DNA of 64,000 bases from the NCBI GenBank assembly GCA_965227295.1, contig OZ245742.1:1824001-1888000 (forward strand). Reading direction: 5' to 3'. Made by a program: the position numbers and the translations under genes. Positions 10,212 through 43,399 of this stretch are shown here, in pieces. A model generated the notes under the pieces. The model did not search any database. It saw nothing but the letters and a program-made list of their open reading frames with translations, and was not told the DNA's origin. Each line of letters opens with the position of its first letter. Positions within the stretch are counted from its first letter, which is position 1. Origin of the DNA: Leptonemataceae bacterium. GTDB lineage: Bacteria > Spirochaetota > Leptospiria > Leptospirales > Leptonemataceae.

Positions 10212-11213
10212 ATGATGCGACAAACAGCTAAGATTCTTGCGCTTGCCTCGGCAGCGTTCGCACTGAGCACCTGCGCCGAGCTGCAAAAAATGGTCGGCGT
10301 GGATCGGGATCCGTCCATTAACTTTGAGAAAATCGAACTTACCGGCATTGACCTGGAAAAACTCAGCGTGCGCCTGCATACCAGGCTGGACAATCCGTAC
10401 GCCTTCGCCCTGCCCCGGGCCGCCACGGATTTCGGCCTGGAGATCGAGGGCGCAAAGCTGGCGCAACTCAAGACGGATCTTTCGAACGGCGTGGCCAAAC
10501 GTTCCGAAACGCCGATCCCCTTCGATGTGGAGATTCCGTACAAGGGCATCCTGGAAGTGTATCAACGTTTGCCGGGCAAAGAGACATTCAACGTGCGCCT
10601 GAACGGGCCGGCGCAGCTCTTTTTGCCGGAACAGGCGCGGCTCCCCGGCCTGCCCGAATCCATGACGTTGGACCTGGACCAGAGCCGGGAAATTCCCGCG
10701 CTGCGGCCGAACATTGAGGTGCGGAACTTCTCGATTCAGAAGCCCACGAGCAGCGACCTGGTGTCGGCGGTGGGCCCGGTGCTCGCCGTCGCGCTGGAAA
10801 CGTACCTCAATCGATTGTTAGGCGACGGCGGCAGCCCCCCGGGTGCCGCCACGGCGATCCTCGGACGTCTGGACTATCGCCTCAAGACCGAGTATGAACT
10901 GGTATTAAAGAACGAAGCCGCGGCACAGATGGACTTCACGAAAGTAAACTACGCGCTGGCTTTAGAAGGCCGGCCGTTTTTCGAAGGCATCGGTACGGAG
11001 ATCGTGAAGGATGAACTCACCGGCGCTTCGATCGTGAAAGTCCAGACGGAGTTTCCGATTGTATCGATCACGTCTTCGATTGCCCGGGCCATAAAGTACA
11101 AGAATGCGAACTTCCGGCTGAGCGGTGATGCCGGTCTGGATCTTCCGGACTTCCCGGTGAGTGATCTGCTCAAGCTGAAATTCGATAAGGCCGGCAAACT
11201 GGACTGGCAGTAA
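10212..11213 (+). CDS. lipoprotein with LEA_2/WHy-like domains
   Basis: Lipobox-like ALSTC; LEA_2-like DNPYAFALP and a second beta-rich repeat. Confidence 0.7.
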   Translation: MMRQTAKILALASAAFALSTCAELQKMVGVDRDPSINFEKIELTGIDLEKLSVRLHTRLDNPYAFALPRAATDFGLEIEGAKLAQLKTDLSNGVAKRSETPIPFDVEIPYKGILEVYQRLPGKETFNVRLNGPAQLFLPEQARLPGLPESMTLDLDQSREIPALRPNIEVRNFSIQKPTSSDLVSAVGPVLAVALETYLNRLLGDGGSPPGAATAILGRLDYRLKTEYELVLKNEAAAQMDFTKVNYALALEGRPFFEGIGTEIVKDELTGASIVKVQTEFPIVSITSSIARAIKYKNANFRLSGDAGLDLPDFPVSDLLKLKFDKAGKLDWQ

Positions 11214-11221
11214 GATTTTAT

Positions 11222-11341
11222 AACCACCGAAGCGCCGAGGCCACCGAGTTTAAGAAATCAGAGAGCACACATAGCCCGAACGCTTTCGGTTACGAATACT
11301 CTTCCCCATCTTTCCTCGGCGACCTCGGAGCCTCGGTGGTC
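11222..11341. mobile_element. ~120-bp MITE-like element with GxxExxY-type terminal inverted repeats
   Basis: Left ACCACCGAAGCGCCGAGGCCACCGAG, right CTCGGCGACCTCGGAGCCTCGGTGGT. The right end, including AATACTCTTCCCCATCTTTCCTCGG, matches the GxxExxY right end at 40913-40960. Confidence 0.7.
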
Positions 11342-11343
11342 CA

Positions 11344-13815
11344 ATGTCTTCTATGATAGACCGCATCATTGATACCTTACGCAGCCTTTACGAAGGCGCG
11401 GCGGATCGATTGTATCGCATCAGCCTGCGCCTGGGCCCGTTTCTCGATAATCTGCGCGACCTCAGTCGCGAACACTGGCAGAAGCTGCTCATCTTCGGCA
11501 TCGGCGGGCCGGCGCTGTTTATTGCCGCGTTTTCGGGCATCGTCTTCGGTATGTACCTGGCGGATCGTTCCGAATTGATCGTTGAGCTGGACGAGTACCG
11601 GGAGTGGCTGCACGGCCGCGGCCGCAGCGAAAAGAAACCGGCTATCGTTATCTATGACGTGGGCGGCCGGCCCATCGGTGAATATCTTCCCGAACGCGGC
11701 TCGCGGATGACCATGAACGTTTGCGGCGAGGCGACCTGGCTGAAACACGCGGTGGTCTCCGCGGAAGATCGGGAGTTCTTCGATCACGGCGGGGTATCGT
11801 TGCGCGGCATCGTACGCGCAATCTACAATAACGTGCGCACGCTGTCGTTGCGCGAGGGCGGCGGTACCGTAACGCAACAGGTCGCGCGCAATCTGTTTAC
11901 CGATCGTGCGCGTTCGTTTACGCGTAAGCTCTACGAGACGTACGCCGCCTGGCTCATTGAAAGCAAACTCACGAAGGACGAGATTCTGTGTTTGTACTTA
12001 AACAAGATCTACATGGGCGAAGGCCGCATCGGTGCGGAAGAAGCGGCGTGGTTTTACTTTCGTAAGCCGCCGCAAAACCTCAACGCCGCCGAGGCGGCCA
12101 TGATCGTCGGCCTGTTCCCGAGCCCGGTGTACTACAGCCCGCTGAACAACATCGAACTATCGCTCAAGAAACAGCGCCTGGTCCTGGATGCCCTGGAAGA
12201 AGCGGAGCACCTGACCGAAAAAGAACGCAACATCGCCTACCAGGCCTTCCTGAAAAAGTACCGCGTGGAAACCGGCGGCGAAGATCCCGATCCCGGTGAG
12301 ATCGGCCGCTACGGCGCTTCGCGAGACTTCCGTTACAATGCCGCGCCGACGGCCAACGAGCACGTAAAGGACGTTTTGCATTCGAACAGTCTGATCCAGG
12401 AAGAGGTCGTGCGCGAAGGCGGCCTGCGCGTGTATACCACCATCGACCTGGATCGCCAGCGCGGCGCGCTGCAGGCGTTGCGGAGCAGCGTCGCCCAGGC
12501 GCGCGCTAAGATCATTTCAAACAATGCTAACAACAAAAGCTTCGAGGCGCGGGAGATCGAAAAAATTTCCCGGCGCATGAACGGGGCCTTCGTGGCCCTG
12601 GACTCGAACACCGGCGACATCCGCGCCATGGTGGGTGGTTACGCGGTGAACGAGGGCACGATGACCCGCCGTGTCTGGGCCATGCGCCGGCAGCCCGGTT
12701 CCACGATCAAGGGCGCGTTGTACGCCGTGGCCCTGGATGAGGGCGTCTACAGCGTGAACGATGTCGTCATCGACGAGAAGATCAGTATCGGCGGCTACAG
12801 TCCGCGCAACTGGAACGGCAAGTATTTAGGACCGGTGCCGTTGCGTCAGGCGTTGGCCATGTCCATCAACACGGTGGCGGTGAAGACGCTGGATCGCGTG
12901 GGCATCAGTCGCTTTCGCAATTTCTTATCGTCCGCCCTCGACCTGAGCTTTTTTGAATCGGGGGATCGCTTCCCGGGGAACTTGAGTCTGGCCCTCGGCT
13001 CCGGTGAAGTCACGCCCATGGAACTCGCGCGCATTTATGCTACCATCGAAAACGGCGGCCGGGTGGTGGAACCGCGGCTGATTACACGCATCGAAGATCG
13101 CGACGGCAAAGTCATTTACCAGGACTATCGGCGGCGGGACGACGGGGCGTTGGTACTCGGGGAGTACGCCTGCGCCGAGGCGGTGAAACTCATGCAGTCC
13201 GTCTTTGATCCGGAAGTCGAAGGCACGGTGAGCTACATCGGCAAACGTCGGGCCGGCAATCCGAATTATCTGCCGTTCCCCATCGCCGGCAAGACCGGGA
13301 CCGTTCAAATAGTAAAAGAGACCCGCAAAAAATATCCGGGCATGCGCGGCGTGCGGGACGCCTGGTTCGTGGGTCTCACGCCGGGCGAGGCGGCGGTGGT
13401 GTGGCTGGGCCACGACGAGGGCGCTCCCTTCCGCGGCTCCGGCAGCCAGGCCGCGAGCGTCTGGGCCGGCTACGCCCAGGCGTCGCTGCGCGGCAAGGTC
13501 TCCCGGGAGTGGCCGCGGGTGGACGAAGTGGAGATCGAGGATCCCGTGATTGAACTGGAGGAACCGTCGGACGAACAGGACGGCGACGATTCCTTAACCG
13601 GCGATGATCAGGAGTTAGTCGACACCGAGGCCGACGAAGTGCCGGAGCAAGACCCCGTGAAGGAGCCGGCGGAAAAACCGGAGGACACGGCGAGCCCGGG
13701 AGATGCGACGGGCGACGCGACAACGAATAAAGAACCCGCGAAGGAACCCGAGAAAAAACCGGAGGAAACTACGCCACCGCCGGTGAAGAAAGCGGAAGAA
13801 ACGGTGTCGCCGTAA
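11344..13815 (+). CDS. class A penicillin-binding protein (PBP1A family)
   Basis: Transglycosylase motifs EDREFFDHGG, GGGTVTQQVARN, LYLNKIY; transpeptidase SxxK (PGSTIK), SIN, KTGT; acidic C-terminal tail. Confidence 0.93.
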   Translation: MSSMIDRIIDTLRSLYEGAADRLYRISLRLGPFLDNLRDLSREHWQKLLIFGIGGPALFIAAFSGIVFGMYLADRSELIVELDEYREWLHGRGRSEKKPAIVIYDVGGRPIGEYLPERGSRMTMNVCGEATWLKHAVVSAEDREFFDHGGVSLRGIVRAIYNNVRTLSLREGGGTVTQQVARNLFTDRARSFTRKLYETYAAWLIESKLTKDEILCLYLNKIYMGEGRIGAEEAAWFYFRKPPQNLNAAEAAMIVGLFPSPVYYSPLNNIELSLKKQRLVLDALEEAEHLTEKERNIAYQAFLKKYRVETGGEDPDPGEIGRYGASRDFRYNAAPTANEHVKDVLHSNSLIQEEVVREGGLRVYTTIDLDRQRGALQALRSSVAQARAKIISNNANNKSFEAREIEKISRRMNGAFVALDSNTGDIRAMVGGYAVNEGTMTRRVWAMRRQPGSTIKGALYAVALDEGVYSVNDVVIDEKISIGGYSPRNWNGKYLGPVPLRQALAMSINTVAVKTLDRVGISRFRNFLSSALDLSFFESGDRFPGNLSLALGSGEVTPMELARIYATIENGGRVVEPRLITRIEDRDGKVIYQDYRRRDDGALVLGEYACAEAVKLMQSVFDPEVEGTVSYIGKRRAGNPNYLPFPIAGKTGTVQIVKETRKKYPGMRGVRDAWFVGLTPGEAAVVWLGHDEGAPFRGSGSQAASVWAGYAQASLRGKVSREWPRVDEVEIEDPVIELEEPSDEQDGDDSLTGDDQELVDTEADEVPEQDPVKEPAEKPEDTASPGDATGDATTNKEPAKEPEKKPEETTPPPVKKAEETVSP

Positions 13816-17374: not shown

Positions 17375-18103
17375 ACACGCCCCGAATCGTGATGTAAGTG
17401 GTGGCCAGTGTACATTAAGACTTTTATGGGTACAACTGGTTCCAGCTGACGTACGGAGGTCATGCCGGGGACCTTGGTAAGGCGGACCGGAACGGCGTCG
17501 TCGCTGCGGAAAAAACATCAAGCGAAGGCGCACCGGAACGGCGTTTTCCTCGCAGCATTCGCCAACGGAGCTGAGTCACAAACCGACGTCCGGGTCGAGA
17601 CGGACAGTCTAAACAAAACGAAAATCCACAACTCCCGCTCAGCCGTAGCCAAAAAAATAACTTCACCGTTGCGCAACTTACTTCGTGTTTCTCACGGCAA
17701 CAGTCACGAACCGCAGTCCTTGAACTACCGGAAACGCCCGGGCAGTTCGCACACGCCCCGAATCGTGGTGTAAGTGACGGCCAGCTTGTATTAAGCCTTT
17801 TTTGGGTACAACTGGTTCCAGCTGACGAGCGGAGGTCGGGCAGGGGAGCATGGTAAGGCGGACCGGAACGGCGTCGTCGCTTCGGAAAAAACATCAAGCG
17901 AAGGCGCACCGGAACGGCGTTTTCCTCGCAGCATTCGCCAACGGGAGCTGAGTCACAAACCGACGTCCGGGTCGAGACGGACAGTCTTAACAAAACGAAA
18001 ATCCACAACTCCCGCTCAGCTGTAGCAAACAAGTCCCTTCACCGTTGGGCGACTTGTTTCATGTTTCTCGCGGCGACGGTTGCGAACCGCTGCTCTTCTA
18101 CCG
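17375..18103. repeat. tandem duplication of a ~376-bp non-coding unit (copies start at 17375 and 17751)
   Basis: Both copies begin ACACGCCCCGAATCGTG and share long identical blocks. They differ by substitutions and small indels. Confidence 0.93.
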
Positions 18104-21648: not shown

Positions 21649-21721
21649 GCTGCCTTAGCTTAGTTGGTAGAGCAGCTGACTTGTAATCAGCAGGTCGTGG
21701 GTTCGATTCCTACAGGCAGCA
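21649..21721 (+). tRNA. tRNA-Thr(TGT)
   Basis: Acceptor GCTGCCT/AGGCAGC, anticodon arm GCTGA-CTTGTAA-TCAGC, T loop GTTCGATTC. Confidence 0.97.
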
Positions 21722-21731
21722 CAGTGAAAAG

Positions 21732-21813
21732 GGGCAGATGCCCGAGTGGTTAAAGGGAGCAGACTGTAAATCTGCCGGCGTAGCCTACGAAGGTTCGAAT
21801 CCTTCTCTGCCCA
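21732..21813 (+). tRNA. tRNA-Tyr(GTA)
   Basis: Acceptor GGGCAGA/TCTGCCC, anticodon arm GCAGA-CTGTAAA-TCTGC, long variable arm, GTTCGAATC. Confidence 0.97.
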
Positions 21814-21890: not shown

Positions 21891-22016
21891 CTCAGCCGTA
21901 GCCACATCAAAGCCTTCCTCATTGCGCAGCTTACCTTTCGATTCTCACGGTCCACACCGTGAACCACGGCTCTTGAACTACCCGAAGCTTTCCATTGGTT
22001 CGGTCACGCCCCAAAT
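21891..22016. repeat. third, partial and diverged copy of the 376-bp repeat unit
   Basis: CTCAGCCGTAGCCA...TTGCGCAGCTTAC...TTCTCACGG...CTTGAACTACC...CACGCCCCAAATC is collinear with 17638-17764. Confidence 0.75.
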
Positions 22017-37204: not shown

Positions 37205-37253
37205 GAATGTATTCTTAGTACTTGCACGCCCTGAAGATGATGAGGCAATAATC

Positions 37254-37481
37254 TTTTGGGCGCGTCGCCTTCGGCGACCGGGCTGCTACGGGCGCCGCTA
37301 TCGCTTCGGTCGCGCTACGCGCGACGGCCTTCGGCCCCCTTCGCATCCCTCGCGCTTGAATTCCGGTGCTCTTCGCGCGAGCGATTGGAGGGGTGGCCGA
37401 AGGCCAGTCTCGGCCGCAGGCCGAGACCGCAGCGAAGCGGAGCCCCGGAAAGCGCGGTCGCCGAAGGCGACGCGCCCAAAA
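37254..37481. repeat. REPIN-like inverted doublet of a palindromic REP-type unit
   Basis: 27-bp perfect terminal IR TTTTGGGCGCGTCGCCTTCGGCGACCG; several internal GC hairpins with TTC/GAA/GCA triloops. Confidence 0.85.
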
Positions 37482-37555
37482 AATCCCTACTTCATATTCT
37501 TCGGGGCGGCGAAAAAATTCTGGCCCTTCTACTTGTCTTCGGCGATTTTGCGCGC

Positions 37556-38961: not shown

Positions 38962-38996
38962 TTGACACCGAGGACCGAGGCCCCGAGGGAAAGATG
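38962..38996 (+). repeat. solo GxxExxY-type terminal repeat
   Basis: TTGACACCGAGGACCGAGGCCCCGAGGGAAAGATG matches the GxxExxY left end at 40371. Confidence 0.75.
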
Positions 38997-38999
38997 AGT

Positions 39000-39071
39000 C
39001 CTATCTCTTGCCCGGCGCGCAGCGTCCGGTGCGGCCGTGAGGACGCAGCGCGTTAGCGCGCAAGAGATGGG
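39000..39071. repeat. nested palindromic (REP-like) hairpin
   Basis: Outer ATCTCTTGC/GCAAGAGAT and inner GCGTCC/GGACGC stems. Confidence 0.5.
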
Positions 39072-40370: not shown

Positions 40371-40960
40371 GACTCCGAGGACCGAGGGGTCGAGGGGAAG
40401 ATGGAGGGATGTTGGTTGATTTGAGTTGATTTGCAATTTTTTGGAGAGGGCGATGAAAAAGGTGGAACGATTTGCGGCTTTGGTGCCCTCTCCGGGCATG
40501 AGATTTCCGCGTGGATCGTTTCCGACCGACCGCATCACCGAAAAAATTATCGGCTGTGCCATTGAAGTTCATCGAAATCTCGGTCCGGGGTTACTCGAGT
40601 CGGCCTACGAACTTTGTCTGGTATATGAGTTGGAAAACGCGAACTGCTCGTTTCAACGCCAGGTAGAACTCCCGCTGACTTACAAAGGACTTCATCTGAG
40701 TGCAGGATACAGGATGGACTTCATTGTTGAGGGACGCGTTATCATTGAGATCAAAGCCGTCGAATCGATCAAGCCGGTGCATTACGCCCAGCTGATGACA
40801 TACATGCGCCTCAGCCAGAAACCGACAGGCTTGCTACTGAACTTTCACAGCCCCTACATGCGCACCGGCATCAAAAGACTGAGACTCCAGACATAACAAA
40901 CCAATGTTCATGTATGAAATACTCTCCCATCCTCCCCTCGGTTCCTCGGTCCTCGGAGTT
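40371..40960 (+). mobile_element. GxxExxY cassette bounded by ~40-bp imperfect terminal inverted repeats
   Basis: Left GACTCCGAGGACCGAGGGGTCGAGGGGAAGATGG; reverse complement of the right end AACTCCGAGGACCGAGGAACCGAGGGGAGGATGG. Confidence 0.75.
40453..40896 (+). CDS. GxxExxY protein (PD-(D/E)xK nuclease-like)
   Basis: [52 protein letters not shown]. Start 40453 (GGAG RBS) or 40498. Confidence 0.95.
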
Positions 40961-40971
40961 AACGATTCCCC

Positions 40972-43256: not shown

Positions 43257-43283
43257 ACCACCGAGGCTCTGAGTCACGGAGGG
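43257..43283 (+). repeat. degenerate GxxExxY-type terminal repeat
   Basis: ACCACCGAGGCTCTGAGTCACGGAGGG matches the reverse complement of the 11341 end (ACCACCGAGGCTCCGAGG). Confidence 0.6.
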
Positions 43284-43399
43284 CGTTGGGCGATCCAACT
43301 CCTTAAGTAATGTTACGTGGATGTTAGTATCCTTGCCCTTCCCGACGTAGTGAGAGGCCCGGAGAGATTGGGACCTGCCGGGCGCATGGATGCTTGGTT

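Follow-up and report, generated by a model that had tools for sequence, protein, structure and literature searches.

The inverted repeat that lies directly upstream of a PBP1A-family penicillin-binding protein gene in this Leptonemataceae bacterium is one of roughly 200 hairpin-forming repeats dispersed in the genome. It is read here, with a probability of about 0.6, as a gene-less member of a hairpin-repeat superfamily that is linked to GxxExxY nuclease genes and moved in trans; by analogy with REPIN-RAYT, we infer that the GxxExxY nuclease moves the repeats. The repeat lies in the window (the whole 64,000-nt stretch of DNA that was analysed), which also holds a gene-carrying relative. The original prediction regarded the likeness between the two as the strongest evidence in the window that the ends are mobile. 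Taken alone it is not; that evidence comes from the genome-wide census of copies and from the empty sites in related genomes.

The window element and its family

The gap between the stop codon of a LEA_2-type gene (TAA, 11211-11213) and the PBP1A start codon (ATG, 11344) measures 130 nt and is occupied by an inverted repeat of 118 nt (Table 1). The inverted-repeat element of about 120 bp that had been predicted at this place is real, with a small correction at its right end: the core stops 3 nt (CCA) before the ATG, where the original prediction had placed the end at 11341, 2 nt before it. The arms are near-perfect complements, each made of three tandem 8-nt units of the type CNCCGAGG, and the interior carries a module that is common to A-type copies (see below) and the 3' flank of the GxxExxY gene. 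Folded as RNA, the gap reaches -51.2 kcal/mol (z -7.07), a value equalled by 0 of 200 shuffles; folded as DNA it reaches -26.1 kcal/mol (z -4.96). A terminator scan of 11214-11343 calls no terminator-like site, and there is no T-run, the post-stem sequence being CCAATGTC. No promoter-like site is called at the element, and a permissive Rfam scan of window positions 10000-42000 returns two tRNAs and chance matches, none of them at either element.

Table 1. Features discussed in the text (window coordinates) and the three arm types counted genome-wide
Feature	Position	Strand	Details
LEA_2-domain protein gene (called a lipoprotein gene in the original prediction)	10212..11213	+	PF03168, E 2.2e-9
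Left flank, probably element-borne	11208..11222	+	Would supply the LEA_2 gene with its TAA stop and one additional Gln codon
B-type gene-less hairpin repeat, core	11223..11340	.	118 nt; sequence, folds, family profile match, B arm-pair list
Left arm, ACCACCGAAGCGCCGAGGCCACCGAG	11223..11248	+	Three CNCCGAGG-like units in tandem; B 18-mer matched with one mismatch
Window element interior	11249..11314	.	A-rich spacer and module (GAGAGC..CATAGCCCG..TTCGGTTACGAATACTCT)
Right arm, CTCGGCGACCTCGGAGCCTCGGTGGT	11315..11340	+	Inverted copy of the left arm; exact B 18-mer match on the minus strand
Right flank, probably element-borne	11341..11356	+	Would supply the PBP1A ATG (11344) and pyrimidine-rich TCTTCT
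PBP1A-family penicillin-binding protein gene	11344..13815	+	TIGR02074, 443 bits; Transgly and Transpeptidase domains
Solo A-type arm	38965..38988	+	29 nt past the stop of a glutamine-synthetase-like gene
Gene-carrying element, A arms (40372-40395, 40936-40959)	40372..40959	+	588 bp; long closing stem in RNA fold
GxxExxY / PDDEXK_3 nuclease gene	40453..40896	+	TIGR04256, 150.7 bits (cut-off 35); D89-E99-K101 intact
Solo arm, three unlike units (CACCGAGG, CTCTGAGT, CACGGAGG)	43257..43285	+	24 nt past an aldehyde dehydrogenase stop
Arm type A, ACTCCGAGGACCGAGG			Arms at 0/1/2 mismatches: 158/259/286
Arm type B (window element), ACCACCGAGGCNCCGAGG			Arms at 0/1/2 mismatches: 24/42/72
Arm type C, CCACAGAGG... 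/ CCACAGAGGCACAGAG			Arms at 0/1/2 mismatches: 30/42/57

The right end of the element (11292-11341) aligns with the right end of the GxxExxY copy (40913-40962), about 29 kb downstream, at a local score of 29; of 1000 dinucleotide shuffles one scores as high, and of 2000 random intergenic 50-mers drawn from the same genome with family loci masked none does. The kinship of the two ends had been predicted, as had its extent: the alignment goes beyond the CCGAGG units and takes in the subterminal AATACTCT..CCCAT. A profile built from 36 other copies, with the window copy left out, matches the window element at E = 2.1e-10 genome-wide.

The family was counted with models of its ends and of the whole element. 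An end model built from 5 sequences and searched in the 5.94-Mb genome at E<=1 gives 293 end matches, which form 105 convergent pairs of 77-184 bp; the full-element profile (36 oriented copies, 112-123 nt) finds 159 loci at E<=1e-3 and 129 at E<=1e-5, and 99 of the 159 are near full length (at least 80% of the model). The original prediction had proposed such a count, and named a lack of further copies and a non-significant end alignment as outcomes that would speak against it; the family is dispersed, with many further copies genome-wide, and the alignment is significant. Copies are about 75% identical to each other by BLAST of a canonical copy, so their spread need not be recent. Three arm types are distinguished (Table 1), for which reversed-pattern controls give counts of 0-1. 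The B type comprises 11 arm pairs, the window copy and two very short ones among them. C-type arms number 40 in the genome, including those of 10 gene-less hairpins of 102-151 bp.

All types follow one architecture, in which three tandem 7-8-nt units of the type C-N-C-N-GAGG are inverted around a poorly conserved interior; pairwise identity in an alignment of 36 A copies is 88% for the arms and 51% for the interior. The B units (CACCGAGG) differ at one position from the C units (CACAGAGG) and from the CACGGAG units of relatives, and the A units have the CCGAGG core of B in a different spacing. The interior holds a loose module, GGAGAGC..CATAGCC..TTCAGGCTACGA..GCTCTCC, which the window B copy and some of the C copies have as well. 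RNAalifold, run on a MAFFT alignment of the 36 A copies, recovers the arms alone, and interiors folded by themselves as DNA are weakly structured (median z -0.8; 7 of 36 below -2), for which reasons strong compensatory evolution in the interior was dropped as an explanation. Copies of about 175 nt (for example G000:C1:3384661-3384842, 3397993-3398170 and 5233925-5234102) consist of the right-hand ~80 nt of the model twice, head to head, with two inner modules and one arm pair. The flanks outside the core are loosely conserved, with a purine-rich stretch and then TTT on the left, and AAA and then a pyrimidine-rich stretch on the right; pairing between the two flanks of a copy was considered and rejected, their complementarity being equal to that of permuted partners. 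No target-site duplication is found in 99 copies at k of 2, 3, 4, 5, 6 and 8 nt and offsets of 0-5, again in comparison with permuted partners.

The genomic setting was taken from a purpose-made crude gene caller (4789 genes), by which 96 of the 105 arm pairs are intergenic. Among 101 near-full copies, 67 lie between same-strand genes, 19 between convergent and 6 between divergent genes, and 9 overlap a called ORF; start codons and these 9 'in gene' cases are unreliable with this caller. Divergent spacers are depleted: they hold 6 of 92 copies, where their number would predict 18.5% (p 9e-4) and their length 26.6% (p 9e-7). By the crude calls, copies lie a median of 8 nt past the upstream stop and 16 nt ahead of the next start, and the orientation of the elements is unrelated to gene direction (28 same, 24 opposite). 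Set against these medians, the window copy, 9 nt past a stop and 3 nt ahead of a start, is typical of the family. Element-free spacers have a median of 37 nt, and therefore the elements sit in ordinary short spacers; the idea that insertion deletes the native spacer is unsupported, since 37 nt is close to the residual 8 + 16 nt.

The original prediction derived the window element from the GxxExxY copy in the same window. The window element has B-type arms and that copy A-type arms, and no GxxExxY gene with B arms is present in the genome, whose 2 GxxExxY genes have A and C arms; the window element therefore cannot have come from the in-window copy by a simple deletion. The B population could be an orphan that has outlived its gene, or it could be served by the A-type enzyme; A and B have the CCGAGG core in common, and one hairpin (G000:C1:4520377-4520511) is a hybrid, B-type in its left arm and A-type in its right. 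Beyond this genome, a 110-nt hairpin with arms that match the B type and an unrelated interior occurs in a Gemmatimonadetes MAG (JAIOPJ010000021.1, L119:901-1010). It is the one clear hairpin among the matches listed in a contig scan with the B 18-mer, which are mostly single, probably coding, and in high-GC genomes.

Solo arms and other repeats also occur in the window. Between the solo A-type arm at 38965-38988 and the Fe-ADH gene lies a separate GC-rich inverted repeat (about 39004-39070); the Fe-ADH gene itself is bracketed by like-oriented left arms, that of the solo arm and that of the GxxExxY copy. The solo arm at 43257-43285 has no partner arm within 650 nt. A unit of about 376 bp is present in two tandem copies that are 91-96% identical (17375-18097), and a third, weaker partial copy lies about 3.9 kb away at 21903-21974, near two tRNA genes (21649-21813). 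An inverted repeat of 73 nt (37227-37299 and 37436-37508, 78% complementary, arms 136 nt apart) overlaps the called 5' end of the glutamine-synthetase-like ORF.

Empty sites in related genomes and the PBP1A junction

The arms are specific to this lineage among the genomes compared. The A 16-mer (<=2 mismatches) has 286 matches here and 0-10 per genome in 60 relatives, which is no more than the reversed control gives; B arms number 42 here and 0 in the 60 relatives, and the canonical copy finds BLAST matches in 0 of 40 relatives. The two same-genus genomes (G001 and G002) are distant, with PBP1A proteins 65-66% identical to the one considered here. In both of them LEA_2 is directly followed by PBP1A, and the spacer, without the element, is 9 nt in G001 and 42 nt in G002; a comparison of this junction across strains had been proposed in the original prediction. 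Four A-type junctions (korA|korB, oppA|oppB, oppB|next gene and X|serS) are likewise empty in both congeners, and the spacer between Fe-ADH and a glutamine-amidotransferase-like gene (GATase), compared in G002 only, is 18 nt there and lacks the GxxExxY copy. All 6 of the 6 junctions are empty, five having been checked in both congeners and Fe-ADH|GATase in G002. By this comparison the window element is an insertion at the tight lipoprotein-PBP1A junction that postdates the split of the lineage from its congeners. Similarly, the 588-bp GxxExxY unit reads as an insertion relative to G002, because Fe-ADH and GATase are 18 nt apart in that genome. Contigs from two sequencing runs, probably of the source DNA, are identical to the window and show no joint or variant.

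Two of these junctions give an indication of how much sequence came with the elements. The oppA|oppB spacer is 2 nt in G001, and the flanks of 11 and 13 nt found here must therefore have arrived with the element. At X|serS the stop codon of the upstream gene lies directly against the core, and the protein that this gene encodes is shorter here by about 7 residues. Other details of the congeners are noted as they stand. At the G002 empty sites oppB|next and korA|korB, small GC-rich hairpins lie just past the stops, one of them followed by a T-run; hairpins of this sort might be the kind of site that elements enter. In G001, the match to the GATase homologue (L112, around 1501-2361) has one in-frame TGA, and the gene upstream of this homologue differs from the Fe-ADH arrangement of G002.

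At the window element, the flanks CAGTAAGATTTTATA (left) and CCAATGTCTTCT (right) resemble the family flank pattern and fall in the zone that is element-borne at other junctions. For these reasons the flanks (about 10-13 nt) probably donated the present LEA_2 stop codon and PBP1A start codon. The LEA_2 protein has one extra residue (Q) before its stop compared with both congeners, and the PBP1A N-terminus is 5 residues shorter than in both, with an MSS start in place of MNK; the PBP1A protein scores 443 bits against TIGR02074, below the cut-off of 508.75 bits. The element has probably replaced the stop-start junction between the two genes in this way, supplying a new stop and a new start codon. 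The original prediction held that the element forms the 5' UTR of PBP1A, to which it probably adds more, as the flanks seem to supply both the upstream stop and the PBP1A start. A Shine-Dalgarno-like GGTGG (11335-11339) lies in the right arm, 4 nt ahead of the ATG, and is paired in the predicted RNA stem; in the PBP1A mRNA the element stem would then pair this site, and an effect of the element on PBP1A expression is plausible.

GxxExxY genes and their arms

The two TIGR04256 (GxxExxY) genes of this genome lie one between A arms and one between C arms. The in-window ORF also scores 145.8 bits against PF13366 (cut-off 22). In its element, the right 58 nt match positions 61-118 of the gene-less profile, and the left arm is intact (87-117). 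The second gene (genome positions 978925-979266) is flanked by a 32-nt, 94% complementary repeat of CACAGAGG units. Flanking inverted-repeat scores for the two genes are 46 and 54, and the maximum of 300 random sites is 35.

GxxExxY genes are also found in 17 of the 60 relatives (18 of 61 genomes with this one), at 1-3 copies each. Flanking inverted repeats were scored at 26 of 29 loci in 16 genomes, three loci being too near contig ends; 14 of the 26 exceed the 95th percentile of a null of 300 random sites and 10 exceed the 99th, and the other 12 have no significant flanking inverted repeat. Loci above the null mostly have tandem-unit arms, with units such as CACGGAG, CACGGGG and CGCGAAG. A degenerate arm pattern is present in 10 of the 18 genomes that have GxxExxY and in none of the 43 that lack it (Fisher p 5e-7, an overstatement given the relatedness of the genomes); because the pattern came from gene flanks, about 2 matches per gene are built in. 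Arms clearly outnumber genes only in G000 (the genome considered here), G006 (27 arms, 1 gene), G008 and G019.

Residues G44, G46, E49, Y52, D89, E99 and K101 are invariant in 22 aligned GxxExxY sequences. An AlphaFold model of the 147-aa protein has a mean pLDDT of 88.1, and Foldseek returns weak neighbours, the best being Cas4 SSO0001 (E 9.7e-4, TM 0.43-0.48), then lambda exonuclease and Hjc; a sequence search of the PDB with the protein gives no match at E<=1. The protein is a minimal PD-(D/E)XK nuclease with an apparently intact active site, the structure speaking for the nuclease fold only. A Y1_Tnp/RAYT gene (PF01797) has no match in the genome, in a search whose control was positive in 6 of 14 known genomes, and the 596-bp GxxExxY copy alone accounts for adjacent convergent end pairs 300-3000 bp apart in this genome.

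Possible mechanisms and known systems

In the mechanism preferred here, the arms would be binding and cleavage sites of the GxxExxY nuclease, which would copy gene-less hairpins in trans, as RAYT does with REPINs, and without target-site duplication; insertion would favour short spacers just past stop codons. These data would also fit the invasion of already existing hairpins by a nuclease gene. The hairpins would in that case be the primary replicators, or host elements, and GxxExxY a selfish passenger that homes into them or is captured by them. The A-type gene copy does look lodged inside a hairpin, with the right part of the gene-less consensus and the left arm retained; a gene is present in just 1 copy out of about 143 of type A and 1 out of about 20 of type C, the B population has none, and the genes are patchy among the 61 genomes. 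A homing gene, however, should fill many targets and not one per population, and arms of this kind are missing from all 43 genomes without the gene. Moreover, no other candidate enzyme is found, there being neither a Y1_Tnp gene nor, among adjacent convergent end pairs 300-3000 bp apart, another longer copy with these ends, and the passenger explanation is considered unlikely, if the most serious competitor.

Two further explanations have considerably less in their favour. The original prediction named the element a MITE of the GxxExxY family. Terminal inverted repeats, small size, many copies and intergenic sites would all suit a classical MITE, that is, an insertion sequence shortened by internal deletion and dependent for its movement on a DDE transposase encoded elsewhere, but the 99 copies examined against permuted partners have no target-site duplication, and a transposase-bearing parent with matching ends is not found, the sole adjacent convergent end pair 300-3000 bp apart being the GxxExxY copy. 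Arms built as arrays of short units, in an element that is a hairpin from end to end, do not suit a MITE either, and the MITE label is abandoned as highly improbable. Selection by the host of a non-mobile structural signal (a terminator, mRNA stabiliser or protein-binding site) is improbable as well: absence from the orthologous junctions of the congeners and from 60 relatives, orientation independent of gene direction, and the position of 67 of 101 copies inside same-strand gene strings speak against it, as does the lack of a T-run or terminator-like call at the window element. What such a signal would explain is the closeness of copies to stop codons, their depletion between divergent genes, and arms that are far better conserved than the interior.

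The closest analogue appears to be the REPIN-RAYT system with a different enzyme, and not a classical MITE, because no target-site duplication, no Y1/RAYT gene and no transposase-sized copy is found. REPINs are described as REP doublets that form hairpins and are accompanied by one copy of a Y1 HUH transposase gene (Bertels and Rainey, 2011; PMC3116915). The likenesses are conserved short inverted doublets around a less conserved spacer (PMC3116915), a hairpin-forming and extragenic nature with tens to hundreds of copies, no target-site duplication seen here, and several populations, each with its own repeat-flanked single-copy gene, which holds for A and C and not for B. The differences are that the linked gene here encodes a 147-aa PD-(D/E)XK nuclease and not a Y1 transposase, that the arms here are three tandem direct 7-8-nt units and a REP is an imperfect palindrome, and that the populations here are missing from congeners, whereas REPINs are described as mostly vertically inherited and long-lived (10.1101/2022.05.22.493013).

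Other small elements resemble the repeats in part. This likeness is seen in size, in terminal inverted repeats and in copy number for bacterial MITEs such as Correia/NEMIS, RUP and BOX, which are small and non-coding, have terminal inverted repeats and many copies, and are often near genes and co-transcribed. The present family differs from them in having no target-site duplication, no IS parent found, ends that are short-unit arrays, and gene-carrying relatives that all hold a nuclease. Intervening sequences of 23S rRNA carry a small ORF in a long hairpin, and the gene-carrying copy here similarly folds with a long closing stem around its ORF; it differs in lying between protein-coding genes, and not in rRNA, and in its ORF family. 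E. coli REP/BIME elements stabilise mRNA and affect neighbouring genes, and work attributed to Liang, Rudd and Deutscher from 2015 reportedly found lowered expression for genes with a REP no more than about 15 nt from the stop codon. The window element is comparable in being a stable predicted hairpin 9 nt past a stop inside an operon; organism and element family differ.

A wider proposal, put forward tentatively and with less confidence than the reading of the window element itself, is that REPIN-like intragenomic replicators form a second class, so far unrecognised, whose catalytic partners are the GxxExxY proteins, with arm-unit specificity, horizontal arrival and orphan survival as its properties. 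The nuclease would read arms of three 8-nt units, and the variable base (A, C or G in CAC-N-GAGG) would set the population served. Populations would arrive horizontally, to which the identical B arms of the Gemmatimonadetes MAG hairpin may point, and burst within one species; hairpin populations could persist as orphans once the gene is lost. Flanks that carry a stop and a start codon would let elements occupy operon junctions, that of lipoprotein and PBP1A among them, without breaking either gene.

A search of the accessible literature found no published account of hairpin repeats paired with a GxxExxY nuclease. GxxExxY is rarely named there, and a passage that mentions the domain does so in passing and holds nothing on repeats; the function of PF13366 is listed as 'Unknown' in a 2012 survey (PMC3424549). 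A functional link would assign a role to the PF13366 family, which is present across prokaryotes and viruses, and would mean that REPIN-like populations can be run by a PD-(D/E)XK nuclease and not by an HUH transposase. In the organism, roughly 200 stable hairpins lie within a few bases of stops and starts in operons, one of them directly before a major peptidoglycan synthase gene; these hairpins are likely to shape operon expression and gene ends, and will mislead the automated calling of start and stop codons.
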